From: a virus
Lineage: Duplodnaviria > Caudoviricetes
Strand: one strand, 5' to 3'
DNA length: 59,573 nucleotides
Virus record (IMG/VR): IMGVR_UViG_3300033141_001990
Location: 1-59,573 of that record
Part shown: piece after piece, positions 1,714 to 25,994 of the stretch
How positions within the stretch are numbered: position 1 is the stretch's first letter
How the letters are laid out: each line of letters begins with the position of its first letter
The notes under the pieces: model-generated
What the model was told of the DNA's origin: nothing
The model's database searches: none
Seen by the model: the letters and a program-made list of their open reading frames with translations, nothing else
Made by a program: the position numbers and the translations under genes

Positions 1714-1716
1714 AAT

Positions 1717-4529: not shown

Positions 4530-4559
4530 TATGTTTCTGGGGTGTAGATTACGCAAAAG

Positions 4560-5774: not shown

Positions 5775-5820
5775 GATGTTCTCCCTTTGGTTGTGGTGTA
5801 CTTCTCTCGGTCTAGTCGGT

Positions 5821-6553: not shown

Positions 6554-6567
6554 CGCATGTTCCCTTC

Positions 6568-7923: not shown

Positions 7924-8810
7924 CGCGCCTCCCTTGGAGGCAGGCTGCCAGCAGACACCCTAACTTCTTTCGACGCCTCGGCTGCCGCACGCCCTGCGCG
8001 GGCCTTCTGCTCCTTGGCGAACTGCTCCTCTCTAGCCTCAAGCTGTTTCTCCATCTGCTCCGTACTACGAAAACAATACTCTGGGAGAAGCCGACCGTTG
8101 GCTCGATACCAAGACTCTTCGTGGAGGAAAGCTGTAAGCGCACGTTCAACGGACTCGGACCCAAACTCCTTGAGACGGTCGCGGATCATGACCATCCTCT
8201 TCTTCGTTCGCTTAGGTAGCTGTAGATGAGTCTTGCCCTCGTGCTCTGCCCTTTTCTCGATGTATAGATCCCATACCCAATGAGCGATTATCCGAGAGTT
8301 CTCCTCTGGCGTAGGATCGTATATTGCTTTGAGAGTATCGGTGTTTGGGTATCCATACGCTCCGGACTTCCACCACTCCTTCGAGGTCGGGGTCGGGGTC
8401 GAGGTCGGGGTCGTAGGTCTAGCGGCAACCTGCCGAGGCTTTCTGACTTTCTCCGAGAAACCAAGGCCAAGTGTTTGATTTTCCTTGATTGGACCCGGCA
8501 CTCTTGGCTTACCAGCGTTGTCGATCCTTTGGTGCCTGCCCCACCCTTTGATTGAGACATACGCTTGCCCGTTCGCCTCATAGGGATCGACCAGTTGGGC
8601 ACCGCACAGCTCGCGCAAGGGCTCCCCTGCGTCCTTGGTGGTGTCTTGCCACACCATCGCTGCGAGGTAGCGGTGACCCGCTCTCGCGTTTCCGTAGTCG
8701 TCTGCCAGAAGCCATAGAGATACGAATAAGCGCCAAGCGGAGTCGCTTAGTGCGCTTGTCTTATCGTCCTCCAGAAGCTCCGGCTTTATTGACCTGATTC
8801 TTCCAGCCAT
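7920..8810 (-). CDS. Replication initiator / replisome organiser
   Basis: RIRSIKPE...RLF..LW..ADDYG N-terminus typical of phage initiators; directly upstream of dnaB. Confidence 0.7.
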   Translation of the reverse strand: MAGRIRSIKPELLEDDKTSALSDSAWRLFVSLWLLADDYGNARAGHRYLAAMVWQDTTKDAGEPLRELCGAQLVDPYEANGQAYVSIKGWGRHQRIDNAGKPRVPGPIKENQTLGLGFSEKVRKPRQVAARPTTPTSTPTPTSKEWWKSGAYGYPNTDTLKAIYDPTPEENSRIIAHWVWDLYIEKRAEHEGKTHLQLPKRTKKRMVMIRDRLKEFGSESVERALTAFLHEESWYRANGRLLPEYCFRSTEQMEKQLEAREEQFAKEQKARAGRAAAEASKEVRVSAGSLPPREAR

Positions 8811-8849
8811 ATCTTTAATTTCCTTCATCTTATTGTCGTGGTTTTGTGT

Positions 8850-8882
8850 TGTATTTGAGGCAAGGTGCCTCCTGGTGGCTGC
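8850..8882 (-). promoter_or_regulatory. Bipartite motif copy 1 (degenerate)
   Basis: Plus strand tgtatttgagg-N9-tcctggtggctgc, upstream of the initiator gene. Confidence 0.5.
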
Positions 8883-8981
8883 GGGAGCCGCAGGGACCGA
8901 TACCGTGTGCCCCGTGCGGCATCCCGCTGTATTGCTGGTCATTCGTGGGTTCGCATAGAGCGTCTCCAGAATGTTTCCAGA

Positions 8982-9266
8982 CTACTTAGCAGCTTGCCTT
9001 CTCAGCTTTGCTGATCGGTATCTCTCATACTCCTTGTCCTCGTGCTTATCACCCGTAAGCAACCAAACAAGATCGCACTCAAGAGCACGAGCTAACTTGA
9101 CAACCGTTTCTCCATTGGGGTTTTTTCGGTCGCCACGCTCAATCATGGCAACGTGCCCCTCGTGAAGACCAGATCGCCTATCAAGCTCCTTTGCGCTTAT
9201 CCCCTTAGCGATCCTTCGTGTTCTTAATCTTTCGCCAAAGGTTGATTCCTTACCACTCTTCGCCAT
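8982..9266 (-). CDS. XRE-family HTH transcriptional regulator
   Basis: FGERLRTRR..KGIS..EL....G......IERG...P....KLARAL.C...WLL; GGAGGA RBS. Confidence 0.9.
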   Translation of the reverse strand: MAKSGKESTFGERLRTRRIAKGISAKELDRRSGLHEGHVAMIERGDRKNPNGETVVKLARALECDLVWLLTGDKHEDKEYERYRSAKLRRQAAK

Positions 9267-9663
9267 CGCTTCCTCCGTCGTCAAAGTTAGGTTCCCTACG
9301 CATATCAAGGGCATCGCTTACGGTCTCAACCGTGTGCGTGTCCCGCTCTTGTCGATCCTGTTTCTTAATTACGTGAGCATCCTTGCAGTTAATCTCGACT
9401 GTTGTTCGCACGCTTCCCTTGTATTCGTATTCGTCAATAACGATGGGACCTTCCACGTACACCAAGTCCCCCTTGTTTATATGCGATACGCGATCCACCA
9501 TGCGATCCCAGCACACAACCGAATACCAGGAGGTGTGATCTTGCTGCTTCTTGGTAGTTCGCACAGCTAACCTGAACTTGGCTTGCCTCATGCCGCTATC
9601 GAAAACCATCTCTTCGGGCTGTGTGCCCACCATACCCATAAATTGAACTCTGTTTACAGCCAT
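9250..9663 (-). CDS. ssb: Single-stranded DNA-binding protein
   Basis: VNRV...G.VG..PE, F.LAV, WY.VV.W, KGDLVYVEG, acidic tail. Confidence 0.9.
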   Translation of the reverse strand: MAVNRVQFMGMVGTQPEEMVFDSGMRQAKFRLAVRTTKKQQDHTSWYSVVCWDRMVDRVSHINKGDLVYVEGPIVIDEYEYKGSVRTTVEINCKDAHVIKKQDRQERDTHTVETVSDALDMRREPNFDDGGSDGEEW

Positions 9664-11057
9664 TACGATTTCTCCTTTGTTGTTCTGAATTGTGAATAAG
9701 CTCGTGTTTTAAGTGCTCCCATTTTCTTTGCGCTTTCTTTAATTTCGTTTGCGCGCTCTGTGCCGAGAGCCTTCTTGATAGCCGATACGGCTGGGTTTTT
9801 CCTGGGTGCCACCTTATCAATTTCCCATTGGTTGAAGATGGCTTCATCACACGTGTCCCCAAAATCGTCCTTCGCGGACAAGTCGATCGAGTCGGAAGAC
9901 ATACTGATTTCGCGCCACACCTTTCCGCCACCCATAGGTATGCCACCATTCTCTGTTGAGAAAGATTCAAGCGAAGCTCGGACTGCCTTGACGTGAGTCT
10001 CCACTACGCTAGTCGCACTCTTGAGCCACACAGCGTGGTCCTCGTCTCTAACCACAGTCACAAAATCTGCTCCGGAGTAAGTCTTCTTGAGCTTTTTTTT
10101 GATCGTAACCAGCCCGCTACTTGCGCTAGTGGCAGACAGGTTCTCTGCCTCGGGACATATGCTTGCGCTCCTGCACCACCTACACTTTGGGCCAACTACA
10201 GGTGAGATGTCCTCTGCTTTGAGGCTATCCCATACTGGAGAGAACCGAGCGAAGTAGCTCGCGACAAGGTGACGAGCGCGGAAGATGGCGCGATCAATAC
10301 GGACTTTTCCATACTCATCGACAAAGGCAATCTCCAGCATAATCCACTCGGGGGCTCTGTCCCCAGCACGGTGGTCCAAAAACTCGTCATCTAAAGCTAG
10401 CCATATAGCTGCACCACAAGCATGTAGCTGAGCGTTCCCAGGCTCACCCTCTTTCGTCTTAACGGAATCGGTGTACTCAGGACGACCCGTCTTCCAGTCG
10501 CGAACATACAGGACATCCTCTCCATTCAGATTTGTTTGGGTGGAGCATTGAGTGATCCAGAACAGGTCAACGGTCATAGGTATCTCGCGTTCTGGATCAA
10601 TGTCCGAGTAATCGCGATGCTCTCCACGTGGCAAGAGCCTCGCTGTTCCTTGTGACATATCTATAGCCACTGGGGCCTCTACCCTTGGACCACACACCCC
10701 AACGCTAACCACATCCCCGACAGCACCTTCAGCCATAGTGAGAGCCTCATCCTTAAGAGCAATTAGGTTCAGGTGATCGGGATCATTGGCGTCGTCTTTC
10801 TCTGCATCCAACCTAGATCGCTGAGTGTTCAGATACGTCTTCGCAAGGCTGCGCAGACCGCTTGAAGTGTTAGGTTTTGCGCGGTTGCTTGGGGATAGAG
10901 GGAAGTCCTGCATCTTCTCAAAGCACTTCTCCATGTGGTCATGAAACAGCGTGCCCCGCGTAGCGGAGTCGCCCACCTTCTCTGTCTCGTCTGGCACGTT
11001 CTTTACCCACCAAACGCACTGCTCCGCTCTGCTAAGAGCACTCGCTGAGAGCGTCAT
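9663..11057 (-). CDS. PD-(D/E)XK nuclease (Cas4/RecE-like exonuclease)
   Basis: N-terminal SAS...C, RGTLFH, TVDL, RDWKTG, QL, C-terminal CxWCx5C. Confidence 0.8.
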   Translation of the reverse strand: MTLSASALSRAEQCVWWVKNVPDETEKVGDSATRGTLFHDHMEKCFEKMQDFPLSPSNRAKPNTSSGLRSLAKTYLNTQRSRLDAEKDDANDPDHLNLIALKDEALTMAEGAVGDVVSVGVCGPRVEAPVAIDMSQGTARLLPRGEHRDYSDIDPEREIPMTVDLFWITQCSTQTNLNGEDVLYVRDWKTGRPEYTDSVKTKEGEPGNAQLHACGAAIWLALDDEFLDHRAGDRAPEWIMLEIAFVDEYGKVRIDRAIFRARHLVASYFARFSPVWDSLKAEDISPVVGPKCRWCRSASICPEAENLSATSASSGLVTIKKKLKKTYSGADFVTVVRDEDHAVWLKSATSVVETHVKAVRASLESFSTENGGIPMGGGKVWREISMSSDSIDLSAKDDFGDTCDEAIFNQWEIDKVAPRKNPAVSAIKKALGTERANEIKESAKKMGALKTRAYSQFRTTKEKS

Positions 11058-12055
11058 CGGTTGCCCGCCTCACACTCAATGGCACGAGCCTTGGCAGCTA
11101 TAGTTAAAGCGGCATAATTATCCTCGAACTCCTTCGGTTCCCCGCGAACCTCGTCAGGAAGGCAATCGTGTACCATGCGCTCAATCCATTTGGTGGTTCG
11201 CTTACCGTCTGGCTGGTTGCCCAGAAAATATGTCAGCATATCGTTGAATCCATCGAGCTGTGCGGTGCTAAGCACATCTGATGGCGATATTGCGTCAGTA
11301 GACTTAGGGTCAACAGCAGCCTTGAACCACATACTTAGGCTGCCAATGGAACATAAAACCAAACCCTCCTTACATTCCCTATATGCGTCCTTTAGGGATT
11401 TTCTTTTGTTTGGTGGGGAAGAGGATATGTCTGCCTGGAGTCCCCACAGAGCAGAAAATGAGGTGCCTTGCTTTTTAATGTCGGAAGCGCTTAGGTTGTG
11501 GTTGGCCACCGTGTGCGAGCGCACCTTCTTCCCTGGCGCTTTTGGTTTAAGGCCAGCGTGACCGTCTGCCTTTTGTGCATCGTCATCCTCATCCGACGTT
11601 GGGATACCCAGTATCGCGAGCAGCGCGTAACGCTTAGCGTATGATATGGACGACCCCTCCCCCTTCATGCCGGAGTTCTCTACGATATAGGGATACCGAG
11701 AGAGGATAAACTCGCCCGACGTGTGCATGAGCATTGTCCAAACGCACCCGTTGCCGAGTGGCTGAACGAAGCTAAGCCCCGTCCTATCAAGGTGTGGCGT
11801 AAGCGCCTCCACCACGTCAACATACTGGGCGTACTTATATCTGATCCTTCCGGCATCAACCTTGCTTCCCTTGTAAACCGATCCAATCTTCGTTTGCACA
11901 TCGTTGATTGCGTCAGACAGGTTGTTAATGGACATGCTGAATATAAGCTCTGGCGATTGGTCAGAGTTTATTGCCTTCATCAGCGCTAGGTGGTGCTCTG
12001 AGCTAATGGCCCATGGTTGCGTTGTTGGTTGCGTTGTTGGTTTCTTTGCAGTCAT
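11054..12055 (-). CDS. ERF-family ssDNA-annealing recombinase
   Basis: YKYA, LMHTSGE, GSSISYAKRYALLAILGI...EDDDA signature. Confidence 0.9.
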   Translation of the reverse strand: MTAKKPTTQPTTQPWAISSEHHLALMKAINSDQSPELIFSMSINNLSDAINDVQTKIGSVYKGSKVDAGRIRYKYAQYVDVVEALTPHLDRTGLSFVQPLGNGCVWTMLMHTSGEFILSRYPYIVENSGMKGEGSSISYAKRYALLAILGIPTSDEDDDAQKADGHAGLKPKAPGKKVRSHTVANHNLSASDIKKQGTSFSALWGLQADISSSPPNKRKSLKDAYRECKEGLVLCSIGSLSMWFKAAVDPKSTDAISPSDVLSTAQLDGFNDMLTYFLGNQPDGKRTTKWIERMVHDCLPDEVRGEPKEFEDNYAALTIAAKARAIECEAGNR

Positions 12056-13323
12056 ACCGATTCTCCATTGTTGTTGGTTTCACATGAAACACGGGAGTGA
12101 TCCCGTGGTGTGATTTTATAAGTGCGCTTCGTTACCGATTGCTCGACATCGCGGTTAACGACTGTCTGCGCCACGAACTTGCGAACTCGCCGCGTGCCTG
12201 GAACAGAGACACCGGTTTCGTTTGTGCGTGGTCCTACCCAATAGTGATGCCAATGCCCGCGACGAACATGCCTTCTTACTCGCGAGCCCGATGATGGGTT
12301 CTCATCTAGCTTCATTTCAAGCAAGCGACCCACATGGGTTACCGTAGCGCCGCTTGGTAAAAAGCTCGCGCGAACACCCTTCTTCCGAAGCGTTCTCCTC
12401 TTGTTCCTAGCGGCATTGTCTCGCTCATCCGGCGCGTGTGACTCAAGCTCGCAGTTAGAACAGACCAGATATAGGATGAGGTTGATTGCTATGCGAGAGA
12501 GAGACATCATCGTATCTGCATGTTCTCTCCCACCTTGCTGGAAGAACTCACTCTCAAGTGTTGCCGGGGGGCACGTTTGCGACTCTTCGATCAGATTCTC
12601 GAACTGTTTTTCAAGGCTATGGATATAAGCATTAGATGTGGCGTTGCCGCGCAACTCGTGTTGTCCGCGTAGTTGGATCTGAAACCAGCTAACAGCGTCA
12701 TCGAATGTACCGAAGGAGTCATCGTTACCTTCTCCCCACGCAGTAACCCTAATCCCCTCCTCACCATTGTCTCCCGCGATCCTGGAGACATACATTCCAA
12801 CCACCCGGTGCCACCCAGTTCTCTCTCCACCCCAAAGCCTGAGTCCGGAGTTTGGCAATGCTAACCAGAACGTATCGTGAGGTATTGCTAGGTCGCTGTA
12901 GAATATCTCCGACAGTTTTGTGGTAGAGAAAGCTTCTGCCATTCGTGGTCCGACCACAAAGGTCTGCTGACCGCAGTCCTCATAGCGACGCATTGACGAT
13001 AGCATCGCAGCGAGATGGCTTGGCACAAGAGCGCTGGCTTGGTTGAGCACTATGTCAACCGTCCTTGGGTCGAGCCCGCGCAAAGCCTCAAGCATAGTGG
13101 TAACTTTGAGGTGCTTCTTCATGACCTCATCGAATTGAGACCAGATGTCGAAGTGAATCTGCACCTGATCGTGACTGGAGCTAACATTGCGCCACGAGCG
13201 CGTGTTCGTATCTGCCAGCCCAGATTCTGGCAGCGCAAGAAGGGTGTTGATGAACCTCAGAAGCGCAGGGCGAGCATCCTTTGGAACATTCGATACGTCA
13301 ACCAGATCGCTAAGCTCAGTCAT
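12052..13323 (-). CDS. Uncharacterised phage protein with C-terminal H.RRGHW motif
   Basis: RRHVRRGHWHHYWVGP; coupled to the ERF gene. Confidence 0.7.
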   Translation of the reverse strand: MTELSDLVDVSNVPKDARPALLRFINTLLALPESGLADTNTRSWRNVSSSHDQVQIHFDIWSQFDEVMKKHLKVTTMLEALRGLDPRTVDIVLNQASALVPSHLAAMLSSMRRYEDCGQQTFVVGPRMAEAFSTTKLSEIFYSDLAIPHDTFWLALPNSGLRLWGGERTGWHRVVGMYVSRIAGDNGEEGIRVTAWGEGNDDSFGTFDDAVSWFQIQLRGQHELRGNATSNAYIHSLEKQFENLIEESQTCPPATLESEFFQQGGREHADTMMSLSRIAINLILYLVCSNCELESHAPDERDNAARNKRRTLRKKGVRASFLPSGATVTHVGRLLEMKLDENPSSGSRVRRHVRRGHWHHYWVGPRTNETGVSVPGTRRVRKFVAQTVVNRDVEQSVTKRTYKITPRDHSRVSCETNNNGESV

Positions 13324-13723
13324 CGCTTCCTCCGTCCAGCTTGTTTGCCAGCAGGAGTGCCCCGAACACCCTTAGCGAATCAACGATCTCGTGCTCTCGG
13401 TTAAGTATCTCCTGCCACTCAGCTTTCTTTATGAGGCAAGCGTCGCTTTTATTCACATAGCCTGTGCATCTACAGCACCCATTTGAGCACGCCCCAATCT
13501 GCTCATCTGGCGGAAGCCTGCTAACGTCACTTTCAATGTGCTTATTGTGAGCAAGTTTTACTCTCGCAAGTGCGACGAGCAACTCCTCCAACTTAGCAGG
13601 GGCAAAAACTAGCTCCCGACATTGCTTTATGAGTAACGAAAAGGAGCAGCTCATATCATGAAGTTGATCATGCGCCTTTGTAAATACTTTGAAAATTTCT
13701 GTAGGTGTTAGTTCGTTTTCCAT
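13316..13723 (-). CDS. Hypothetical protein (Cys cluster)
   Basis: RBS AAGGGA; CSNGCCRC. Confidence 0.6.
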   Translation of the reverse strand: MENELTPTEIFKVFTKAHDQLHDMSCSFSLLIKQCRELVFAPAKLEELLVALARVKLAHNKHIESDVSRLPPDEQIGACSNGCCRCTGYVNKSDACLIKKAEWQEILNREHEIVDSLRVFGALLLANKLDGGSDD

Positions 13724-13736
13724 CGTGTTTTCCCTT

Positions 13737-13769
13737 TCAATTTGAGTGTCTAATCTTCCTGAGAGCCGC
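13737..13769 (-). promoter_or_regulatory. Bipartite motif copy 2
   Basis: tcaatttgagt-N9-tcctgagagccgc. Confidence 0.65.
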
Positions 13770-14097
13770 GATCTGAACGTGCTAGCCGTCGCGCCTTTAC
13801 GATTCTTTTCCAGTCAGTCCCGTGTAGGTACTCAAAGAAGTTAACCTCCACGAATCTTTCTGATCCGTCCTTCATGGTTAGCCTGCTGTGATATTGGAGC
13901 GCTCCCCCCTTGTTACGGTCATGCGGCACCAGCGCGACACCCTTAACCATGTGCGGCTCAACCCCATACTCCGCCTCAAACGATAGCTGTCGGCTAAGTT
14001 GAGCTGTCAGCTCGTTTGCTTCGTCGCGCTTACGCGACATCCTATCGGTTACTTCTTTAATCAAGTCCTTGGGTTCATTCATAACGGTGGTCTCCAT
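13750..14097 (-). CDS. Hypothetical protein
   Basis: 115-aa ORF in operon orientation. Confidence 0.6.
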   Translation of the reverse strand: METTVMNEPKDLIKEVTDRMSRKRDEANELTAQLSRQLSFEAEYGVEPHMVKGVALVPHDRNKGGALQYHSRLTMKDGSERFVEVNFFEYLHGTDWKRIVKARRLARSDRGSQED

Positions 14098-14140
14098 GTG
14101 TGTTGTTTTTGGGAATGTGTTTGTGCATTACGCACCAACC

Positions 14141-14272
14141 CCACGCGCGCCCACGCCCTGACCAAGGACATAGGACGCGCGTGGAGCGGCACAACTAGTC
14201 AGCGATTAAGCGGGTTGCTCCTAAGCAAAGGGGTAACTCACAGAGCAACCCGCTAATCTACATGCTGACTAG
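14141..14272 (-). ncRNA. Candidate structured RNA (two long adjacent hairpins)
   Basis: ctagtcagc/gctgactag plus agcgggttgctc/gagcaacccgct stem; second stem ccacgcgcg/cgcgcgtgg whose inner part pairs via G-U only on the minus strand. Confidence 0.45.
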
Positions 14273-15612
14273 GATGCGATCTGGATTTTCTGATTGCGGC
14301 TCTCAAACACGCCGCCCGCCATACGCTCAAGCTCAAGCGTGCGCTCAGCAGTCTTTGCGCTTTGTGCGATGAGAGATAGGACGTTAGAAGCGCGCCACAC
14401 GGTGCGCGCAGGAGGAAGCAACACCTCTTGCTCGCAGTTGTTGAATAGGTTCTCAGCTAACATCAGCTCGTCTTTGGTAAGGTGTCTCTTGATAGATTCA
14501 CCAAACTTTTTCCAGTCGGTTTCGGTTTCGTGTGCTTTTTGGATAGCGATTTGGAGCTGCCCAATGTTGTCGTCGCTAAGCATATGCTTTATGTAGTCCT
14601 TCATGGTCGCAGCGCTGGCCGCAGTGACCTTCTCACGGGTGTCCTCACTCCACGCGATGTCGCCATGGAGCTTGGTTCCCGTGTGAACCTCACGCAAGCT
14701 GTCCATCGTTGTAGCCTTGTTGGTACACCAAAGCCTCTCGATGGTTAGAGCTAAGCAGTTAGCTCCACATCCGAAGTCCGACGTGGACCACGCAACCCCG
14801 AAGATCATTGGGCTATCAGCGATGGGCTCAAACACGCGCTGAAGCACGAGCTTAATTTGACATCGCGTGTCGCTCATAATCGCATCCGTTGGAACAGCTC
14901 CAGCATCGTTAGCTGCCTCCAACAGAGTCTCCAATAGAAGCATACTATCAAGACGCTTATAGCTAGATCCCAAGAACCCGCGAGCCTCATCGTCAATCGA
15001 TCGGACTAGCGATTTCTTCATCTTGATTGGCGTATCCTTGTAGTGGGTATTGAGAACCTCCACGCATAAGCGCTGAAGTGCAGGCTCCCCGCTGTTCATC
15101 ATCTGTTTGAGATACCTTAGCGGCACCTTCGTCTTTTCCCCCGCGGTACCAAACTCGGTACGGTTTGAGATTTGTGATAGTGCGTTGTTATGTAGAGTTA
15201 CCGTGTGTCCACCTACATCCAACAATAGGCGCGACGTGCCGTCCTCTTCGGAAATGGTAGTTATTTTCCCGTCGTTTTTGATGTTGGGCACCTCCACCAT
15301 ATCGAGTAGTCGGCCAACATCGTCCGCACCGTCCATTCCCTTCGCTTCGGGATCGGCAGCATCGAGCAGTACCGGGTCCTGGATAGCCTTAGCGCCAGCG
15401 TGACGCTCAGGTACACCCCATCTAAAATTAAGGTCGCGACCGTGAATCGCAAGCCGGTCCTCTGGAACCACGCTTTGAAGGTGGCGCGCTAACTTAGTTG
15501 CTCTCGCAACACCTTCCTGAATGCGGTTGTGAAACGTCTTGCGTATGTCGATAGCCGCAGCTTCTTTTGCTTTGTCATAGTCTCGCTTATCGTGATGAAA
15601 CATAGTAGCCAT
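14269..15612 (-). CDS. DUF932-like protein with N-terminal extension
   Basis: RGFLGSSYKRLD, S.FG.G, RLWCTN, H.G motifs; AGGAG RBS before ATG 15612. Confidence 0.65.
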   Translation of the reverse strand: MATMFHHDKRDYDKAKEAAAIDIRKTFHNRIQEGVARATKLARHLQSVVPEDRLAIHGRDLNFRWGVPERHAGAKAIQDPVLLDAADPEAKGMDGADDVGRLLDMVEVPNIKNDGKITTISEEDGTSRLLLDVGGHTVTLHNNALSQISNRTEFGTAGEKTKVPLRYLKQMMNSGEPALQRLCVEVLNTHYKDTPIKMKKSLVRSIDDEARGFLGSSYKRLDSMLLLETLLEAANDAGAVPTDAIMSDTRCQIKLVLQRVFEPIADSPMIFGVAWSTSDFGCGANCLALTIERLWCTNKATTMDSLREVHTGTKLHGDIAWSEDTREKVTAASAATMKDYIKHMLSDDNIGQLQIAIQKAHETETDWKKFGESIKRHLTKDELMLAENLFNNCEQEVLLPPARTVWRASNVLSLIAQSAKTAERTLELERMAGGVFESRNQKIQIAS

Positions 15613-15731
15613 TGTTCGTATCTCCTGATTGTTGTGGTGTTTGTGGCTGTGTCCAGCCATGACCATGCTCGGCGTCTACAGCCGCACGCGGTCATAAGAT
15701 ATTTCGTTACATAGTCTAAGACTGGGGACCC

Positions 15732-16007
15732 TTACGTCACCGAATCCCAATAACTCCTTACACTGGCCGCATCTGCTGCGGCATTAAGGCTCGACCACGC
15801 TCGCCTACGGCACCCGCACGTGGTCATCCAGAACTCACCCCCATCCCTTACGGAATACGTGGGCACGTGCCGGCCAACTAGAGGGTTACGCAAGAAGCGC
15901 ACTACCTCGCGCTCAGTCAGCGAACCGTTGTGTATGAATACGCGAGCAACTTCGTACTCGTAGTGAGTCGCGTTGCTCCAGTGCTGCACTGCCTTGCTAA
16001 CACCCAT
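15732..16007 (-). CDS. Hypothetical protein containing the CGCRRRAWS motif
   Basis: Overlaps the upstream stop; motif repeated in frame beyond its own stop. Confidence 0.5.
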   Translation of the reverse strand: MGVSKAVQHWSNATHYEYEVARVFIHNGSLTEREVVRFLRNPLVGRHVPTYSVRDGGEFWMTTCGCRRRAWSSLNAAADAASVRSYWDSVT

Positions 16008-16260
16008 CCTTATGACCCCTTCTCCAGACGCGGCGCACTTCCCTTAAGTCCACCTTCCTTTTTTTGAATACGGTTATGTGTGCAAGGGGCTCGAAACTCA
16101 CCACTACCGCACCCTTTCGCGTGCGCTTAACAGTGAGAACTTTCCTTGTACGAAGCCCCTGGCGATCAAACTCTATATAGTCACCTGATTGAACCTCCTC
16201 CTTGTTAACCTGATAGTGCCACCGTCCGCGTAGCTGCGTAGTTTCGCTTAGCGAACTCAT
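15997..16260 (-). CDS. Small basic hypothetical protein
   Basis: ATGA coupling with the upstream gene. Confidence 0.6.
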   Translation of the reverse strand: MSSLSETTQLRGRWHYQVNKEEVQSGDYIEFDRQGLRTRKVLTVKRTRKGAVVVSFEPLAHITVFKKRKVDLREVRRVWRRGHKDGC

Positions 16261-16511
16261 GAGGAGTCCCCCGGCTTAAGTATGTCGCCCAGCTTTACCG
16301 TCCTCCATGGCTCGGGTGTGCCCCACCCTTCGGGAAGGGGGTCCATGCACGTGAAGTGACCAGAAATCTCCATGGGCCTTTTCCACGCACACTTAGTGCA
16401 ACGGATGTAGATGTCCCCGTAGTGATTTGTGGAGGTTTTCGTTATGTGTCCGCAGTGGTTGCACTTGTATGTCTTGGCTGTGACTCGCCCGGTGAGCTTT
16501 GGCTCCATCAC
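16257..16511 (-). CDS. Zinc-ribbon protein
   Basis: CNHCG...CTKC. Confidence 0.6.
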   Translation of the reverse strand: MMEPKLTGRVTAKTYKCNHCGHITKTSTNHYGDIYIRCTKCAWKRPMEISGHFTCMDPLPEGWGTPEPWRTVKLGDILKPGDSS

Positions 16512-17320
16512 GCCACCACCTCACATGCAGGGTCCTCTTCTGGCGTGGTGATTAGGTGCAATATGAGCACAAGCTCGTGAAAGTTTTGGTGGTGGAAGAA
16601 CATAGCGTCATCCATGCCCCCATAATTATCGGGCCTAAGCCTGACAGCTGGGGACATACGCTCGCGAAAACTTTCTGCGATCAAACGAGTAAGGACGTGG
16701 CTCACCATGTCGCCTCCCCCGTAGTAGGCACGAGCCTTGCCGCCAAAGAAAACCACCTTATCCATCAGGTCGTCTTTCAAGGCGTCAAGTATGCGACGAT
16801 ATGACGTCATGAAAGCTCTGGCAGAGCTAAGAGAAACGGCAGAATGGGTGTGCTTTTTTTCCGACTTATGAATATGAGCGTCCTGGGCCTCCAAGAAGTT
16901 ATTCCACATAGTTAGTGAAGCCACGTCAAACATAAGGCGACACGCCTTTGTGGCCTCAATCCTCTGGCTAACCTGCAAGCGCACAGAGTGGTATCCCAGG
17001 AACTCCATAAACTCGTGGAGCACACCCTGCGGGGGGTTGTGGCTCCATTTAAATACGTCTTTGTCACGCATAGATACGGCCATTAGACCGTTCGTTTGCT
17101 GGCATGAGATGATAGCCTCGGTCACTTCACACCTGAAGTACCATACCTCCCGTTCACAAGTGGTCCCACTACCCTCGACCACGGGAGCGAACCCCTTAAT
17201 AGCTTCGACCATCTCTATGTCTTCATCGCGGTCAAACACATACTGTTGGTGTGAGTTCGATGTGTTACGCGAGCATTGTATGTGCCTAAATCTCTCAATG
17301 GTTCTTCTTAGTGTAGTCAT
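16508..17320 (-). CDS. Hypothetical protein
   Basis: 270 aa, AAGGGA RBS with CA-rich leader. Confidence 0.65.
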   Translation of the reverse strand: MTTLRRTIERFRHIQCSRNTSNSHQQYVFDRDEDIEMVEAIKGFAPVVEGSGTTCEREVWYFRCEVTEAIISCQQTNGLMAVSMRDKDVFKWSHNPPQGVLHEFMEFLGYHSVRLQVSQRIEATKACRLMFDVASLTMWNNFLEAQDAHIHKSEKKHTHSAVSLSSARAFMTSYRRILDALKDDLMDKVVFFGGKARAYYGGGDMVSHVLTRLIAESFRERMSPAVRLRPDNYGGMDDAMFFHHQNFHELVLILHLITTPEEDPACEVVA

Positions 17321-17344
17321 CTCTTGTTCCCTTTGTTGTTGTGG

Positions 17345-17599
17345 TTAGTTAAACACGCGAGTGATGACGCGACGCTTGCCAGAAGGCATCACAGCCCACC
17401 GCGTGCCGCGCCAGATGTTGATACACATGCACGTCCATGCACACCTAGTTATGATCTTGAACCGGCGTCGCCCGCACTCTCTTGTGCCAGTAACCTCGTA
17501 CCGGATAGCTCCCTCAAACCCGGCAATCTCTGTTCTAGGGCGGTCGTCGTCGTCACGCGCTGCCGTGTCAACTACCTCTATGTTCTCATTGCTAGTCAT
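17345..17599 (-). CDS. Hypothetical protein
   Basis: RBS AAGGGA; INIWRGTRWAV motif. Confidence 0.6.
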   Translation of the reverse strand: MTSNENIEVVDTAARDDDDRPRTEIAGFEGAIRYEVTGTRECGRRRFKIITRCAWTCMCINIWRGTRWAVMPSGKRRVITRVFN

Positions 17600-17667
17600 C
17601 GTTTGTTCCCTTCTATTAGAATACGTTCGTTGCCTTTAAAGGTCAAGCATGTTTGTTGTTTCCCGTC

Positions 17668-17700
17668 TCAATTTGAGTAGGAGACCCTCCTATCGGCCGC
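17668..17700 (-). promoter_or_regulatory. Bipartite motif copy 3
   Basis: tcaatttgagt-N9-tcctatcggccgc. Confidence 0.7.
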
Positions 17701-18460
17701 GAGTAGCCATGTGGATTATTGTTAGGCTGGCGTCGTGGTTTTGGGTTACGGAATACTCGCCCACGTCGTTCGCCATACCAAGGTCCTCGGCAAATGCGCT
17801 CGCGGCACTATGCTTGTTTAGGAACACAAACTTCTGAGAGGTTTGTGTGTATTCCTTGGTCCGGTCTTCGAGCATGATTGTGTTGCCGCAATATAGGGTA
17901 ACCAGCGGCTCTGGCACGCCACCGTGTTTGCGCATTAGCCTCTCGAAATGTCCCATTGAGCCATATCGCCAGAAGCCATAGCTCAATGATTGCAATTCGT
18001 GTGGTCCGAAGTAGCAGTCCGGTGGCGCATACTCGTTAAGGGTAGACATGAGATCGCTGAATAGCTCCGCCGCCTCGTCGCTATCCCACCAAGTGGCAAC
18101 ATGAGCCCAGTCTTTAAAGTTATCTAGGTTTATGGTGCCATTCGTTCCGCATTGATCGCACGGTAGGTCTTGATCGCACTTATCAACGCGCGTGCTGTTC
18201 CCAGCATTGAAGCCGCGCATAACTGCACACCTATCGCAAACAATGTCCGTCTGCTCGTGGTCGCCTTGCTCGGTATAGTAAGCCCTCTTAGCGCAGGCAT
18301 CAGGCCCGAATATACGCCTAGTAAAGTTGTCAGCCCTGCGTTTGTCTAGGTGTTTCAACCCTCCTATAAGCGCCAGAATGAGGTCCTCTTGGCTGTTGGT
18401 GGTATGGCTCCAAATTCCTACTCTCACGTTGCCGTAGTCGCTTGCTTGCTTATCAGTCAT
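17690..18460 (-). CDS. Hypothetical protein with inserted CxxC...CxxC element
   Basis: SHTT..EDLI, LNEYAP...YFG.H....YGFW phage orphan pattern. Confidence 0.65.
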   Translation of the reverse strand: MTDKQASDYGNVRVGIWSHTTNSQEDLILALIGGLKHLDKRRADNFTRRIFGPDACAKRAYYTEQGDHEQTDIVCDRCAVMRGFNAGNSTRVDKCDQDLPCDQCGTNGTINLDNFKDWAHVATWWDSDEAAELFSDLMSTLNEYAPPDCYFGPHELQSLSYGFWRYGSMGHFERLMRKHGGVPEPLVTLYCGNTIMLEDRTKEYTQTSQKFVFLNKHSAASAFAEDLGMANDVGEYSVTQNHDASLTIIHMATRGR

Positions 18461-18680
18461 CGGTCGTATCCTTATCTCTGTTGATTTGGTCGCTATCTAA
18501 TTCAGCTTGCGCCAGCTCCGGCTTACCGGAGGCAACCCAAGCGGCTTCGAGTACGGCGCGGTAGTTGTCGAAGTCTAGGTACTTCGCGACAGCGTAGGAC
18601 TCTGGAGCGTGCATCACTGCCCAATCATTAAGATCGAGAATGTCCGGGCGACGACTAGCCATGCTATCCCTACCGCTCAT
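18453..18680 (-). CDS. Hypothetical protein
   Basis: ATGA coupling at 18677-18680. Confidence 0.55.
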   Translation of the reverse strand: MSGRDSMASRRPDILDLNDWAVMHAPESYAVAKYLDFDNYRAVLEAAWVASGKPELAQAELDSDQINRDKDTTDD

Positions 18681-19384
18681 GATGCCACCTTGCCGGATAG
18701 AAATATGTGATCGCATAGAACGCGAAGATCAAGCGCGCCCTTCTTAGCACGCTCCACTAGATGACCGTTTTTGCTAGCGGTAGGCTCCACAAAGCCCGGA
18801 GTCCTCAGATGCGAAAGCTCCAAGGTGTGGAGCGCTTCGACCGCTTTATAGATTGCTTCGATCTTATCGTGCCTTTCTGCTAGCGCTTTAGCGGCTACAC
18901 TCTTCTTTTCTAACCATTCTCCCACACTCATTGGATGAGCTGTTTGTCGCATGACTTCTAAGGCAACCCGTGTAGTTCCCACAAGCGGATCTTCAAACCA
19001 ATCACCGGGCAGTGTGTAAGCTCGCATGCCTAACTCATGCTGTGAGTTAAGGTCACCGGCATTAGGGACACATGGGCTGCACTGGCTGCATAGCGTAGTG
19101 ATACTAGATTCGAGTACGAACACCATCGGAGCACCACCTAAGTAGGATAGCTCCAGGCTCATGCCGTCTTTCTCTAGCGAGTAACAGTCCTCTTCACCCA
19201 TATACTCGTCTGCAAATTCCTGCTCGTCACAATCGGGGTTTGTTTTCTGCCAGTCATCTAGCGCGGCTGCATATGACGTGTTCTTACCATGGTTGAAAAA
19301 CTCATCGTATACCCAATCCTTCAGGCTGTTCAGGTTTGTGACGCCATAGGCTATGTTGGTTTCTGGGTGTATGTTCGGTATCAT
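18677..19384 (-). CDS. Hypothetical protein
   Basis: PNI.PET.IAYGV N-terminus, CSPCVPNAGDL motif; AGGAG RBS. Confidence 0.65.
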   Translation of the reverse strand: MIPNIHPETNIAYGVTNLNSLKDWVYDEFFNHGKNTSYAAALDDWQKTNPDCDEQEFADEYMGEEDCYSLEKDGMSLELSYLGGAPMVFVLESSITTLCSQCSPCVPNAGDLNSQHELGMRAYTLPGDWFEDPLVGTTRVALEVMRQTAHPMSVGEWLEKKSVAAKALAERHDKIEAIYKAVEALHTLELSHLRTPGFVEPTASKNGHLVERAKKGALDLRVLCDHIFLSGKVAS

Positions 19385-19662
19385 ATGCTGTCTCCTTCTG
19401 TGCTTGGTGGTATTAACTGAAAGGCACTCATAAGAATGTCGTGCGCTGCGCTGTCGATGTTGCTGCTGACATAGCGCCACTCCACATCTGGGTTGTAATT
19501 ATCTGAGCCTAGTGGCCACTGGTCGATTAGTGCCTTAAGCGCTGCGACGGCGAATTTTAACTCGATAGCTTGTTGGTGATCCATCGGGCTATCAGCTTTA
19601 AGGGCTATAACAAAATGAGCCCCGACTAAGGCGGCGTGTATTCTCTCCAGTAGCAGTTTCAT
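19381..19662 (-). CDS. Hypothetical protein
   Basis: Coupled at both ends. Confidence 0.55.
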   Translation of the reverse strand: MKLLLERIHAALVGAHFVIALKADSPMDHQQAIELKFAVAALKALIDQWPLGSDNYNPDVEWRYVSSNIDSAAHDILMSAFQLIPPSTEGDSI

Positions 19663-20045
19663 TTAGCTACCCCCGTCAGCAGCCGTGTCCTTATGTCTGC
19701 TTTTTGTTTTCTGTATATGCGTTGACAATTCTTGCACGTCGCGTCGTGCTTCTGATTGGTCATAGGCAAGCGACCCTTGTCGAGATCCAGCAGCTTGGCT
19801 CCCGCGTAACATAGGGGAAAGCTCATGCCCCCGTTAACGTATAGCCGCGTATCCCTTATGTGTGTTTTGGGTTTGTATTGATCGCCATGTGGAAACCCGC
19901 AGGCCGCCAGGAATCTATCCTCGTTAAAGTTAGGCCCGAACTGCCGAAACATAACGGCATATTCCTGTGCCATAACCCATGCGGTGTAGCGGCGCGTCAT
20001 CTCACGCACCCGCTTAGCTGCGAAAATAAAATGTATCTTAGTCAT
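19659..20045 (-). CDS. Hypothetical protein
   Basis: PNFNEDRFLAACG motif plus C-terminal TCKNC. Confidence 0.6.
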   Translation of the reverse strand: MTKIHFIFAAKRVREMTRRYTAWVMAQEYAVMFRQFGPNFNEDRFLAACGFPHGDQYKPKTHIRDTRLYVNGGMSFPLCYAGAKLLDLDKGRLPMTNQKHDATCKNCQRIYRKQKADIRTRLLTGVAK

Positions 20046-20069
20046 GTCTTATCCCTTCGTTGCTGTGGT

Positions 20070-20102
20070 TCAATTTGAGTATCAAGTTGTCCTATCGCCC
20101 GT
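20070..20102 (-). promoter_or_regulatory. Bipartite motif copy 4
   Basis: tcaatttgagt-N9-tcctatcgcccgt. Confidence 0.7.
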
Positions 20103-20120
20103 GGTCACCCCCCGCGTATA

Positions 20121-20348
20121 TCATGAGTAATTCTCCTGCATTTGTGTGTATACCTCGTGAGCACCCGACCACTCGTGGTGCCCGTCTGCTATGCAACCTA
20201 CGGGTATGTTTTTGGGCTTACACGTGCGATCGATTAAGCACATCGTTCGGTAAAGCCGCGACCACATACCCCCGTGGTTAAGCACGCAGAAGGCATAGAT
20301 CCCTGCGATTAGGTCAAACCTATCTATCCCCATCTCTCTATTGCTCAT
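20121..20348 (-). CDS. Hypothetical protein
   Basis: DRFDLI..IY.FC...HGGMWSRLY; GGAG RBS. Confidence 0.6.
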   Translation of the reverse strand: MSNREMGIDRFDLIAGIYAFCVLNHGGMWSRLYRTMCLIDRTCKPKNIPVGCIADGHHEWSGAHEVYTQMQENYS

Positions 20349-20447
20349 TGCTTTCTCCATGTCCGTTGTTTGGTGAGTGTTTACAGGCATACATACACAA
20401 GGAATGCTGCTAGCAGCGCCCCGGCTAGAGCGTCTAGCGCATAGCGC

Positions 20448-20948
20448 TTAAGCCTCATCATGATCGCGATGCTCCGGGCAAACCCACCAAATAGGTTTCT
20501 CCATAGTGTCTACAGGCAACCACTTGGTGCATGCGCGGCAGTCTTCTCTTGGATCGCTCGTCGTGCTAGCGGGTGCATCTGGTATCTCAATAAGGCGACA
20601 CTCGCCATCGTGCAGATATACCCCCTCAGTATCGCTATACATGACGAAGGTTTTGTCGAGCATGAGGTCCGCTTCTGGATGTTGATCCGCAAGATCGGCT
20701 ATGCCTAACAAGTCTGCGGCATGAAGCCTCGTCAACACGACGATGTTGCCAAGCGGCGTGCGGTGATATGGGATCTCAGTACCGCTATGGTGGCTTCCCT
20801 GCTCACCCATGACCGGATCGTCTACATACTTACCCCCGCTAGGGTGCTGTACTGCGTGGCTAGGGTGAAACCTACGCCTAAGTCCGTGTGAGTGTAGTAG
20901 GGGATCAGGTTGTCCGTGGTGGCACGTTGTATGTTCAATTTTCAGCAT
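20448..20948 (-). CDS. His/Cys-rich hypothetical protein
   Basis: Starts right after motif copy 5; C-terminal CRAC...CPEH. Confidence 0.5.
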   Translation of the reverse strand: MLKIEHTTCHHGQPDPLLHSHGLRRRFHPSHAVQHPSGGKYVDDPVMGEQGSHHSGTEIPYHRTPLGNIVVLTRLHAADLLGIADLADQHPEADLMLDKTFVMYSDTEGVYLHDGECRLIEIPDAPASTTSDPREDCRACTKWLPVDTMEKPIWWVCPEHRDHDEA

Positions 20949-20957
20949 AATTTTCTT

Positions 20958-20990
20958 TCAATTTGAGTGGTTATGTTTCCTAACGGCCGC
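20958..20990 (-). promoter_or_regulatory. Bipartite motif copy 5
   Basis: tcaatttgagt-N9-tcctaacggccgc. Confidence 0.7.
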
Positions 20991-21021
20991 GATCCCGCGA
21001 TCCGAATTTTTTACTTTTGAG

Positions 21022-21255
21022 TTATGAAATGACGATCCAGTTGCCCCCCTTAGCCGTCACGTAGCAAGTGCCAATATTGCTATAGATGCAGCAGTAGACG
21101 CGCCGCCATCGCGGGCTACCCGGCAGCTTCACCATTCGCGTTGTTGGGATCTTTCTCCCATACCCGCTAGCCGTATAACTGAGGCCAGCCTTATGCCACC
21201 ACAGCGGCGCGTCCTTGGACTTCAGATCCTCCAACACATAGCTCTGAATGATCAT
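21022..21255 (-). CDS. Small phage early-type protein
   Basis: TASGYGRKIPT..MV....RWRRVY...YSN.GTCYV pattern; GGAGG RBS. Confidence 0.7.
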   Translation of the reverse strand: MIIQSYVLEDLKSKDAPLWWHKAGLSYTASGYGRKIPTTRMVKLPGSPRWRRVYCCIYSNIGTCYVTAKGGNWIVIS

Positions 21256-21341
21256 GATGAGCCTCCCGCCAGTGCGCTTATAGGCGCTATGTGGTGGCCC
21301 ATAAGCCTGCTACCCGTGAAATGTTTCGCTGATATGGTCAT
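21252..21341 (-). CDS. Possible 29-aa leader peptide
   Basis: MTISAKHF...AGGSS; ATGA-coupled to the next gene, directly after motif copy 6. Confidence 0.35.
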   Translation of the reverse strand: MTISAKHFTGSRLMGHHIAPISALAGGSS

Positions 21342-21350
21342 AATTTTCTC

Positions 21351-21383
21351 TCAATTTGTGGGGTTAATTTTCCTAACGCGCGA
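21351..21383 (-). promoter_or_regulatory. Bipartite motif copy 6
   Basis: tcaatttgtgg-N9-tcctaacgcgcga. Confidence 0.6.
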
Positions 21384-21406
21384 TAAAAATTTCCGCGCGC
21401 CGGAGC

Positions 21407-21439
21407 TGAATTTGAGCAATTTGGTGTCCTAAATGCGCG
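21407..21439 (-). promoter_or_regulatory. Bipartite motif copy 7
   Basis: tgaatttgagc-N9-tcctaaatgcgcg. Confidence 0.55.
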
Positions 21440-21717
21440 TGGACACGGGCGTGTATGTGTGCACGTCGCGCGTGCACGCATATGCACGTGCGCGCACACG
21501 TCGCGTGCCTGTGTTGTGATAGGTCCCCCCCCCGGGGGGCTTGCGTTGCCCGATCGGGGCAACTGGGAAGGGCACGATCGTGCTTTGCTCGGCTTGCAAG
21601 GGGGGCTGTACGTCGTTTCACTTTGCAAATGGCCTTGGACCCGTTCTGCCAGCAAACGGCCGTTAGAAGGCCAGCAAACGGGGAACGGCCGTATCCTCCG
21701 ATCATGGATAGATCGGG

Positions 21718-21909
21718 GGCTTGTCGCATGGCTTGTCGCATGGCTTGTCGCATGGCTTGTCGCATGGCTGGTCGCATGGTGGCTCGGCTCGGCTCGGCTT
21801 GGCTCGGCTCGGCTTGGCTTGGCTTGGCTCGGCTCGGCCTATGGTTGGCTCGGCTCGGGTTGGCTCGGCTCGGCCTATGGTTGGCTCGGCTCGGCCTATG
21901 GTTGGCTCG
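21718..21909. repeat. Composite tandem repeat tract
   Basis: 5 x 12-bp ggcttgtcgcat, then GGCTY pentamers and 3 x ggctcggctcggcctatggtt. Confidence 0.95.
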
Positions 21910-21986
21910 TGGCGGGTCTACAAACGCGAGAAAGCCGGCCCCCCCATGGAAGGGCGGCCGGCTTAGGCTAAGGGCTTGCGGGGGGG

Positions 21987-23459: not shown

Positions 23460-23521
23460 TTGTTGTTTCCCTTTTTTGTTGCTGTTGTTTTGCCGCCGTT
23501 TGCCGCCGGCTACGCCCCCCC

Positions 23522-23550
23522 CGGATACACTAGTTCCCTTTTGGCGTCAA
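23522..23550 (-). promoter_or_regulatory. Sigma70-like promoter
   Basis: Sense TTGACG-N17-TATCCG. Confidence 0.55.
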
Positions 23551-23567
23551 TCCCTTTTCTGATCTTG

Positions 23568-23744
23568 GCCGAAACCCCTTGTTTCAAAGGGTCAATCGGA
23601 TCTTGTCGGTCCTTCGCTGTGTTTTTTGACGGGCCCCCGGGGGGCTGTTTTCGGGGTCTACTTTGGATCGTAAAACGCTTGTTTTCACGGTGTTTTCGGC
23701 CACAATTCGCCGAAACCCCTTGTTTTCTAGGGTCAATCGGATCT
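23568..23744. repeat. Two 36-bp direct repeats (23568-23603, 23709-23744)
   Basis: gccgaaaccccttgttt(caa/tct)agggtcaatcggatct. Confidence 0.9.
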
Positions 23745-23757
23745 GGGCGGCACGATC

Positions 23758-23818
23758 GCCCCCCAGGTTGCCCCCCAGGTTGCCCCCCAGGTTGCCCCCC
23801 AGGTTGCCCCCCCCCAGG
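23758..23818. repeat. 12-bp tandem repeat gccccccaggtt (4 full copies + 1 variant)
   Basis: Read directly; five G6+ runs on the minus strand. Confidence 0.95.
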
Positions 23819-23921
23819 ACTAGGTGCCGGATTCAAATGAAAGCCCCCGGATCTGGCGACCTAAATTGCAATATTGCTTAGCTTTTCGGGCTAGGTTGCG
23901 TTCCAGGTAGCACGATCGGCC

Positions 23922-23956
23922 AAAAAAAAGGGCCACCCCCGGTTAGGGGTGGCCCT
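23922..23956 (-). terminator. Intrinsic terminator
   Basis: Sense agggccacccc-taacc-gggggtggccc followed by T8. Confidence 0.85.
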
Positions 23957-23977
23957 CATGGGCGACGTTCTGATCGT

Positions 23978-25279: not shown

Positions 25280-25354
25280 TTGATGTTTCCTTTTATTGTG
25301 GTTTCCCAGTTTCCCGCTGGGATGCTGTCCCGCTAAGCGCGCTAAGCGCTTAAG

Positions 25355-25383: not shown

Positions 25384-25994
25384 TATATTCATGCACTTTT
25401 ATTCACAGGGTGATTCATTGGGGGGCTTTGGGGGCTGGCCCGATAGGTGTTCACCCGCTCACATATACTTAGACCAACAAAAAAGAAGGGTCCCCCGGGG
25501 GGGGGTCTATCGGGCATAGGCTGGCCCATAGCGGGTGGCCCTCATGGGGGGGCCATAGCTTGCGGGCTAGCCCCTGCTAGCGTGCCCCGTGCCCCCGGGG
25601 GGGCTCGCATAGGGTGAGCATACCGATCGGGGGTTAGCGCACTAGCCCGGGGGGCTGTTTCGACATAGCCGATCGGCCACCCGCTAGCGCAAAGCCCCCA
25701 TGCGTTAGGGCTAGCCCCGATCGGGCTTGCGCGATAGCAGAACAGCCCCGAAACCGGCCCCTATTGCCGATAGGTGCAACCACCCGGAATCGTTAGGTTT
25801 CCCCCTATGCCCGATAGGGCTGGTTTCGCCTGGAAGTGTATGTAATCACTAGGGAAAGAGAGGGGGGGTACCCTCTATTCTAGAAGAAAATGCCCTTGCG
25901 CCCTCCCCCGCTAGGAAAATCCACTTTTGAAAGTGACCATACAAAAAAAATCACCACCTTGAAGGGGGGTTGTTCAATGTGATACAGAGTAGGT

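Follow-up and report, generated by a model that had tools for sequence, protein, structure and literature searches.

Repeated promoter or regulatory motifs that are private to one phage are a well-known kind of element. Stoperators are many oriented asymmetric sites along the transcribed arms of a temperate phage, and its immunity repressor binds to them. Promoters of the T7/T3/SP6 type are many near-identical copies, co-oriented with the genes, of one contiguous block of about 23 bp. In the middle promoters of phage T4, the MotA box replaces the -35 element and stands 12±1 bp from the -10 element, as stated in PMC2988021. Two further kinds in mycobacteriophages are described in PMC3203893: the Start-Associated Sequence (SAS) of cluster K phages, which is 13 bp long and occupies the ribosome-binding position at 3-7 bp from the start codon, and the stoperators of cluster A phages, which are transcription-regulating 13-bp sites. 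In the present study we analyzed a repeated bipartite motif in IMG/VR virus record IMGVR_UViG_3300033141_001990. The whole record (59,573 bp, classed as linear and about 80% complete) is hereafter called the window. What is new here is this motif, which consists of a TAGGA box and a 3' box separated by nine unconserved nucleotides, an unusual geometry. Its seven copies in the leftward early arm suggest a class of phage-specific promoters.

The core pattern AGGA-N10-CTCAAAT was found 6 times in exact form in the window, against 0.04 expected, and 7 times when one mismatch was allowed, against 0.91 expected. None of 100 dinucleotide-preserving shuffles reached 6 in the former count or 7 in the latter, and the reversed pattern gave 0 matches in the window. 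All seven copies lie on the minus strand with one spacing throughout; that is, the core matches are at 8853-8873, 13740-13760, 17671-17691, 20073-20093, 20961-20981, 21354-21374 (the copy with one mismatch) and 21410-21430. An earlier description made from the letters alone (the sequence-only reading) had listed seven minus-strand copies with an exact 9-nt variable spacer. The copies and the spacer (7/7 sites) were correct, as were the coordinates, which are the plus-strand left ends of the full motif; one plus-strand candidate, the eighth, had been missed. The 11-mer TCAATTTGAGT is the only one in the window with at least 4 dispersed copies. Away from the seven sites, the 3' box (CTCAAATTGA, at most one mismatch) occurs 3 times, against 2.7 expected window-wide at the background rate. 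Since the 3' box occurs at a mere background rate without the 5' box, the two halves form one unit.

The alignment of the seven sites showed the layout of the motif: a G+C-rich block (CGCGGCCG-like), TAGGA, nine unconserved nucleotides, and aCTCAAATTGA. AGGA, CAAAT and the 9-nt length of the spacer are common to all seven; five of them have the T of TAGGA, and five have the terminal TTGA. In the composition profile, the G+C-rich block extends from -20 to -1 relative to TAGGA, and the A+T peak falls on AAATT of the 3' box. The palindrome TCAAATTGA, which the sequence-only reading had noted in the downstream box, is perfect in four sites and broken in the other three. A position matrix built from the seven sites scored them at 28-47 bits, and the next match in the window reached 18.3 bits, all others being below 8 bits. 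In the leave-one-out calculation, sites G and A scored lowest (Table 1) and the remaining sites scored 26-42 bits. The similarity of sites B and C extends past the consensus to 6/9 spacer bases and to 12 nt downstream; apart from this pair, spacers and flanks are unrelated and both boxes are kept. We found no discussion of the motif string in the literature, and among the matches listed for its 10-mers, all were unrelated uses.

The seven copies are all located at gene boundaries of the tightly packed minus arm and are co-oriented with its genes. The sequence-only reading had placed every copy just upstream of a gene start, including that of the replication initiator. This was confirmed for five sites, which lie 9-24 nt from an ATG, the initiator site among them, but site E stands 68 nt from the next long open reading frame (ORF), site A is a tandem copy, and E and F overlap the preceding ORF. 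Site A lies 56 nt upstream of B and downstream of a non-coding repeat region of about 550 nt, and no start codon follows it. The ATG after site B opens an ORF of 29 codons, which overlaps with the beginning of the 77-aa phrog_3436 gene (21022-21255). At sites B, C and F, a ribosome-binding sequence abuts the 3' box; at F it is AAGGGA and follows the box directly, and the ATG after it heads the block with Erf, PD-(D/E)XK exonuclease, SSB and XRE. Site G is located between the XRE gene and the replication initiator gene. The copies delimit six blocks, which include this recombination block and the initiator-helicase-methylase block (from the initiator through DnaB to Dam). The candidate eighth copy stands 58 nt upstream of the first plus-strand gene of the late arm (25995).

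Table 1. Copies of the motif and main features of the window. Scores are from the position matrix, with leave-one-out scores in brackets; distances run from the end of the 3' box. The last six rows are based on profile searches.
Feature	Position	Strand	Score (bits)	Distance to next start	Description
Site A	21407..21440	minus	30.5 (10.1)		TTTAGGA-N9-GCTCAAATTCA; most upstream copy; kept in L126
Site B	21351..21384	minus	38.3	9 nt (ATG 21341)	One core mismatch
Site C	20958..20991	minus	47.0	9 nt (ATG 20948, 166-aa orphan)	Best consensus match
Site D	20070..20103	minus	40.9	24 nt (ATG 20045, 128-aa orphan)	
Site E	17668..17701	minus	40.4	17 nt (4-codon mini-ORF); 68 nt (ATG 17599, next long ORF)	TAG of TAGGA is the stop codon of a 256-aa ORF
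Site F	13737..13770	minus	41.1	13 nt (ATG 13723)	Spacer holds the stop codon of a 115-aa ORF
Site G	8850..8883	minus	27.9 (6.8)	21 nt (ATG 8828, replication initiator)	Most divergent (CAGGA; ...CTCAAATACA)
Candidate eighth copy	25903..25936	plus	18.3		TAGGA-N9-TTTGAAAGTGA; 3/200 random genomes reach this score
Leftward early/replication arm	~25,280 down to 4,757	minus			
Minus-arm content		minus			Orphan early genes, 490-aa low-complexity orphan, 77-aa phrog_3436 protein, 465-aa phrog_1362 protein
Minus-arm recombination block	XRE at 8982-9314	minus			Erf-like annealing protein, PD-(D/E)XK exonuclease, SSB, XRE-type helix-turn-helix protein
Minus-arm end	initiator ATG at 8828	minus			Replication initiator, DnaB-like helicase, Dam-type methylase
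Rightward late arm	25,995 to end, on through 1-4,563	plus			
Late-arm genes		plus			ParB-like, large terminase, portal, Mu F-like, major head protein, Mu-like baseplate, fibres, lysis

We think that these copies may be phage-specific promoters for successive transcription units, read by the host polymerase together with a specificity factor, and we give this reading about an even chance. From the observed motif, its strand, spacing, positions and conservation, we infer the function as a promoter, and also the start point and the reader described below. The enrichment, the single strand, the single spacing and the joint occurrence of the two halves favor a promoter. So do the boundary positions co-oriented with the genes, which head coherent units, and the composition profile. 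A further argument is that the arm opens, behind a long non-coding region, with the tandem pair, of which site A is not followed by a start codon. The seven copies would split the leftward arm into six successive transcription units, of which the first would be served by the tandem pair, and the weaker eighth copy may serve the rightward late arm. One reader would recognize the double-stranded DNA through two contacts, namely the G+C block with TAGGA, and ACTCAAATTGA 9 bp further on, and the A+T-rich CAAATT would be the part that melts. This reader would most likely be the host RNA polymerase, with a phage protein supplying or replacing the upstream contact as in T4 middle promoters. An unusual host sigma factor seems less likely as the reader, and the evidence does not separate these two options. 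Transcription would start inside the 3' box or within a few bases after it. That is, because the ribosome-binding sequence abuts the box at B, C and F, a start farther downstream would leave this sequence outside the transcript.

Sigma-70 promoters carry a TTGACA-like and a TATAAT-like hexamer 16-18 bp apart, and sigma-54 (-24/-12) promoters carry GG and GC 10 bp apart within TGGCAC-N5-TTGC. Scanning 8000-26500 for a sigma-70-like consensus gave 11 matches against 13.1 expected, and none of them was at a site; the earlier statement that the motif is unlike this consensus therefore stands. A looser scan (8 of 12 matches) of the three large non-coding regions, in which one would look for early promoters, found none. 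The hexamer 17 bp upstream of TCAAAT, as read from the alignment, is GGCCGW-like and does not have the sigma-70 form. The lack of a competing sigma-70-like promoter, with no more matches in 8000-26500 than expected and none in the three large non-coding regions, favors the promoter reading. The only fair sigma-70-like promoter near a site is TTGACC-17-TATTCT at 17646-17618 on the minus strand, between site E and the start at 17599, and the gene starting there may have a second, ordinary promoter.

Several other known signals were compared with the motif and rejected. For sigma-54, the positions ten bases past the GG of TAGGA are occupied by A, C or G and then C, and TTGC is not conserved. The remaining comparisons were made by eye. 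GCCGATAA resembles the sigma-28 -10 element GCCGATAG in just three sites. TCAAA would fit a sigma-E -10 element, but GGAAC is missing 16 bp upstream. TTGAAA at the end of the box would fit a -35 element of sigma-32 or sigma-70, but no -10 element follows. The Bacteroidota -7 box (TAnnTTTG), read in antisense, would give seven antisense promoters, and the phage has clear ribosome-binding sequences. An upstream ORF started from TAGGA was also rejected, because the start codon is not shared among the sites.

The motif resembles promoters of the T7/T3/SP6 type in its many near-identical copies co-oriented with the genes, in its conservation up to the likely start, and in the A+T-rich stretch just before this point. 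The ACTCA-like letters of the box presumably recall the T7/T3 core. Unlike these contiguous promoters, however, the motif is split by nine unconserved positions, on which ground a T7-type promoter was rejected, and no gene for a single-subunit RNA polymerase was found in the record, which is about 80% complete.

The likeness to T4 middle promoters is closer in arrangement. In both cases no polymerase gene is found and many phage-specific boxes precede prereplicative genes. In T4 the phage box is centred near -30. If the positions assumed here are right, TAGGA stands 11 bp from TCAAAT and 12 bp from CAAATT; this spacing is akin to that of the MotA box as given in PMC2988021, and by analogy it would favor a promoter. 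The differences are also clear. The box sequence is unrelated, T4 needs an excellent TAtaaT where the hexamer here is poor, and the MotA and AsiA families were not matched in the Pfam scan of 70 products, among which orphans could hide analogues.

Conservation was examined in related DNA, and the fetched relatives that retain the motif represent one lineage, or two very near each other (L126, L201 and L202), with a nucleotide identity of about 87-94%. L126 is a metagenome contig that encodes a 91% identical version of the 465-aa protein. Its alignment covers 4261-23746, with 82-97% identity in nucleotides, and it keeps all seven copies, six exactly and one with one mismatch. Between the window and L126, 2 of 231 positions changed in the core boxes, spacers and G+C blocks, compared with 603 of 11,700 in coding sequence and 14 of 649 in the other intergenic sequence of the arm; the motif would have about 12 changes if it followed the coding rate and 5 if it followed the intergenic rate. 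In both changed positions, L126 has the consensus base and the window does not, and the only core-box change is at site B. The candidate eighth copy is unchanged in L201 (99.8%) and in L202 (87% over 24504-38236). In L202 it lies inside a 71-nt block free of mismatches, which is the longest conserved block of a 598-nt intergenic region where 50 positions are mismatched. A block like this would arise at one given place with a probability of about 0.002, a value not corrected for the choice of place. The retention in L126, also where the upstream gene content differs, and the L202 block at the eighth copy would favor promoters.

The gene content of L126 differs from that of the window at 15728-16003, 18422-18944, 20118/20119 and 20468-20571. 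These differences consist of one small missing ORF, two replaced stretches and a 368-nt insertion with an extra ORF, and the joints recur in contigs of two public runs. The insertion ends 13 nt upstream of site D and its ORF ends within the spacer of D, and the motif is kept there. This observation bears on the possibility that the copies are inert repeats, that is, relics of duplicated gene-cassette boundaries or recombination sites of modules. The joint near D would fit such an origin, and so would the similarity of B and C beyond the consensus. Nevertheless, of the four large differences, the other three are located away from any site, the spacers and flanks other than those of B and C are unrelated while both boxes are kept, and a strict spacing and strand are unexpected of relics. 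We consider inert repeats very improbable.

Several results weigh against the interpretation of the copies as promoters. Its weakest point is that the implied start is closer to the box than a normal -10 element allows. As a -10-like hexamer the box is poor compared with TATAAT: TCAAAT matches at 4/6 positions and has no A at position 2, and CAAATT matches at 3/6. A start at the usual 7 nt past the hexamer would give leaders of about 5 nt at B and C without a ribosome-binding sequence, and at two sites just 9 nt separate the box from the ATG, an unusually short distance for a promoter. Four other intergenic gaps of the minus arm (57-171 nt) hold no copy of the motif. In L126, the unconserved 9-nt spacers are as constant as the boxes (0/63 changed); the motif is kept there, yet not demonstrably above its non-coding surroundings. 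The Pfam scan (E up to 0.01-0.1) found no polymerase, sigma, MotA or AsiA family, and a search for candidate readers turned up none. Finally, among the public runs listed as matching the window sequence, none is RNA.

The palindrome in the 3' box raises the question of whether the copies are an operator array, that is, DNA sites at which a phage regulator (XRE or an orphan early protein) represses or blocks transcription of the arm, with promoters located elsewhere or overlapping. XRE, the only recognizable DNA-binding protein of the arm, is encoded next to site G and is 100% identical in L126, where its neighbours are 79-97% identical. The palindrome is a perfect 9-bp one in four sites, and a distant phage group has a palindrome of its own in the same kind of place (see below). 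However, it is broken in three sites while CTCAAAT stays, and the sites share one orientation and are asymmetric as a whole over 25-33 bp. The two reading heads of helix-turn-helix dimer repressors need half-sites more widely spaced than 5 bp, and the half-sites here, being 5 bp apart, are too close for them. Moreover, operators alone would leave the arm promoterless, since no promoter of the sigma-70 type was found. The many oriented intergenic copies of an asymmetric site along the transcribed arms are a likeness to stoperators, as PMC3203893 implies. Stoperators are, however, 13 bp long and not bipartite, and we identified no integrase or CI-type immunity region in the window. Taken comprehensively, an operator array seems unlikely, although it is the alternative that we take most seriously.

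The closeness of the copies to start codons suggests another explanation, namely an element acting in the leader RNA, such as a processing site or a site for a translational regulator or enhancer just upstream of the ribosome-binding sequence, similar to the SAS. All copies are in the sense strand of the arm, the box abuts the ribosome-binding sequence at B, C and F, and an ATG follows within 9-24 nt after 6/7 boxes when the mini-ORF of site E is counted. As in the SAS/ESAS described in PMC3203893, the copies are short, asymmetric repeats of one orientation at gene starts, confined to the non-structural half (here 7/7 minus, 8850-21440), and sometimes overlap the stop codon of the preceding gene. 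The SAS consensus given there contains ATAGGAG, and we take its resemblance to TAGGA as chance. Unlike that SAS, with its fixed 3-7 nt, the present unit is bipartite, covers 25-33 bp, and ends 9-68 nt from the start, which is far enough for a ribosome-binding sequence to stand separately. No start codon comes after site A, which indicates that the motif is not a translation signal. Folding of the seven RNAs showed no common structure, and only G folds better than its shuffles, through flanking hairpins. The 5' half can fall inside the preceding ORF (E and F, and D in L126), and an unconserved spacer of fixed length between conserved blocks is what is typically seen where a protein reads duplex DNA. 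We therefore regard an RNA element as rather improbable, more so than an operator array.

The sequence-only reading had also named the absence of the motif from relatives as an observation that would speak against promoters. Such absence was seen solely in distant relatives with few or no shared early genes, and the close lineage keeps every copy. The 80 IMG/VR loci of the 465-aa family (1.35 Mb) lack the motif repeat and hold only single one-mismatch matches. In 74 further metagenome loci, whose best identity after L126 was at most 41% with the exception of one partial match, there were 5 single one-mismatch matches, and 66 further TerL loci (at most 54% identity) lack the motif but for one match of 17.9 bits. 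Since these distant loci share few or no other early genes with the window, their lack of the motif says only that it is private to this lineage as sampled. Exact TAGGA-N9-ACTCAAATTGA occurs in 38 stretches of IMG/VR, with a single match in each; none of these shares a protein with the window at E 1e-5 or better, and we rejected them as chance matches. Single-protein searches in IMG/VR with the 465-aa and initiator products gave no match. A 61% relative of the 465-aa protein (P0002) is encoded on a 54.8-kb contig, and a 53% relative of the endolysin (P0136, on a 37.9-kb contig) is absent from IMG/VR.

A distant group consisting of L050, L051, L052 and L141 (465-aa relative at 35% identity, 55% G+C) has a repeated near-palindrome of its own, TTCCAAAATTTGGAA. 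There are 4-6 copies per locus, for example at 2454, 4103, 5142, 10012, 13437 and 14947 in L051, and at least 4 precede an ATG by 6-18 nt and overlap in part with the ribosome-binding sequence. This is a parallel but different start-proximal repeat.

The sequence-only reading had joined its proposal of a promoter class to the statement that the phage encodes no polymerase or sigma factor. The motif proved to be real, oriented, bipartite and unlike sigma-70. The second part was borne out only as a lack of detection: in addition to the Pfam scan, the PHROGs scan of 40 products found no RNA polymerase or sigma family, but the completeness of the record is about 80%, and most of the early proteins are orphans beyond the reach of profile searches (the ORF list used has 85 entries). 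The missing polymerase or sigma factor is thus an absence of detection and not an absence. AlphaFold2 models made without an alignment for the 129-aa and 167-aa products reached pLDDT 36 and 39 and were unusable, and searches in the Atlas with the 168-aa and 490-aa products gave no usable lead.

A weak HTH_38 match of the 168-aa ORF (25280-25396 region) was dropped, because it is located upstream of the likely true start of this ORF. This start is probably the 40th codon, at 25279; mismatches against L202 show 3-periodicity only downstream of this position, and the Atlas entry of the protein begins at the same residue. With the start at 25279, the divergent non-coding region becomes about 715 nt long. 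In the neighbouring 88-aa and 141-aa orphan ORFs there is a 33-nt direct repeat (24354-24386 and 24869-24901, 85% identical), which spans an in-frame ATG and the next codons (MKIE...) about a dozen codons into each ORF. Translation of both ORFs may in fact begin at these ATGs, and the heads of the two genes resemble duplicates of each other.

Other non-coding parts of the minus arm also contain repeats. In the stretch of about 550 nt upstream of A and B, region 21700-21920 holds the 12-mer GGCTTGTCGCAT 5.2 times and then about 22 GGCTY pentamers. It is the part most different from L126, with many indels, and it draws very deep unrelated metagenome contigs. These arrays may represent an origin or an array of the centromere type; a ParB-like gene is found at 26820-27533. 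A second repeat-rich region at 23460-23977, upstream of the 490-aa orphan gene, holds the 12-mer GCCCCCCAGGTT 4.6 times and a 45-nt sequence in two copies (23565-23609 and 23706-23750). It also contains, at 23957-23928 on the minus strand, a strong terminator-like hairpin with a run of T, which closes the first leftward operon. The 171-nt gap between the 465-aa and 115-aa genes (14098-14268) is free of the motif and contains two long G+C-rich hairpins with stems of 12 bp and 9 bp; it may be a terminator or a small structured RNA.

As to the phage itself, it is an uncultured marine phage, a myovirus. Words near-identical to the window are present in contigs of public seawater and hydrothermal-vent metagenome runs. 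The megablast search of 8000-22000 against named phages gave no match, and the named phages are all distant: the portal shares 22% identity with that of Ralstonia phages, and the 465-aa protein shares 27% with that of a Croceibacter phage. The portal, fibre-like and lectin-fold proteins are the largest products, together with an unassigned 829-aa product of the tail module, where a 102-nt unit is repeated 2.7 times (87% identical, 47129-47400) inside a 107-aa ORF (47111-47434). The G+C content of the window is 54%, and the tRNA and Rfam scans of the window found no tRNA and no match, respectively. TerL relatives at 42-48% identity were found in four Polyangiaceae metagenome-assembled genomes and one of Coriobacteriaceae; these five genomes show no enrichment of the motif (13 matches, compared with 24 of the reversed pattern used as a control). 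A single copy of the cyanobacterial palindrome GCGATCGC was found. Some 6-bp palindromes are strongly avoided over the whole window, namely AGGCCT and CTGCAG (1 each against 17 expected) and ACATGT, AGATCT, CAATTG and TACGTA (1 each against 12), which suggests pressure from restriction enzymes of the host. GATC is not avoided (314 against 230 expected), and this fits the Dam-type methylase of the phage.

With nearly all early proteins of this phage being orphans and no ordinary promoter in sight, the motif is the one firm handle on its regulation. For an uncultured phage, repeated phage-specific promoter signals give the fastest access to the transcription programme, including the starts of its units and its co-regulated genes, and such signals can be used as bait for the protein that reads them. 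We speculate, and regard as doubtful, that the motif is a promoter architecture not yet described, in which a phage box at about -30 is combined with a non-canonical melting element and the host RNA polymerase is reprogrammed by a phage protein without detectable likeness to MotA, AsiA or any sigma factor. If this is true, sigma appropriation would have been invented a second time, independently, in an uncultured marine myovirus that would also be without an ordinary sigma-70 promoter where its early promoters should be. If the reader is instead a promoter type of an unstudied host, the finding would be an ordinary one, but if it is a new factor that redirects the polymerase, it would be of general interest.

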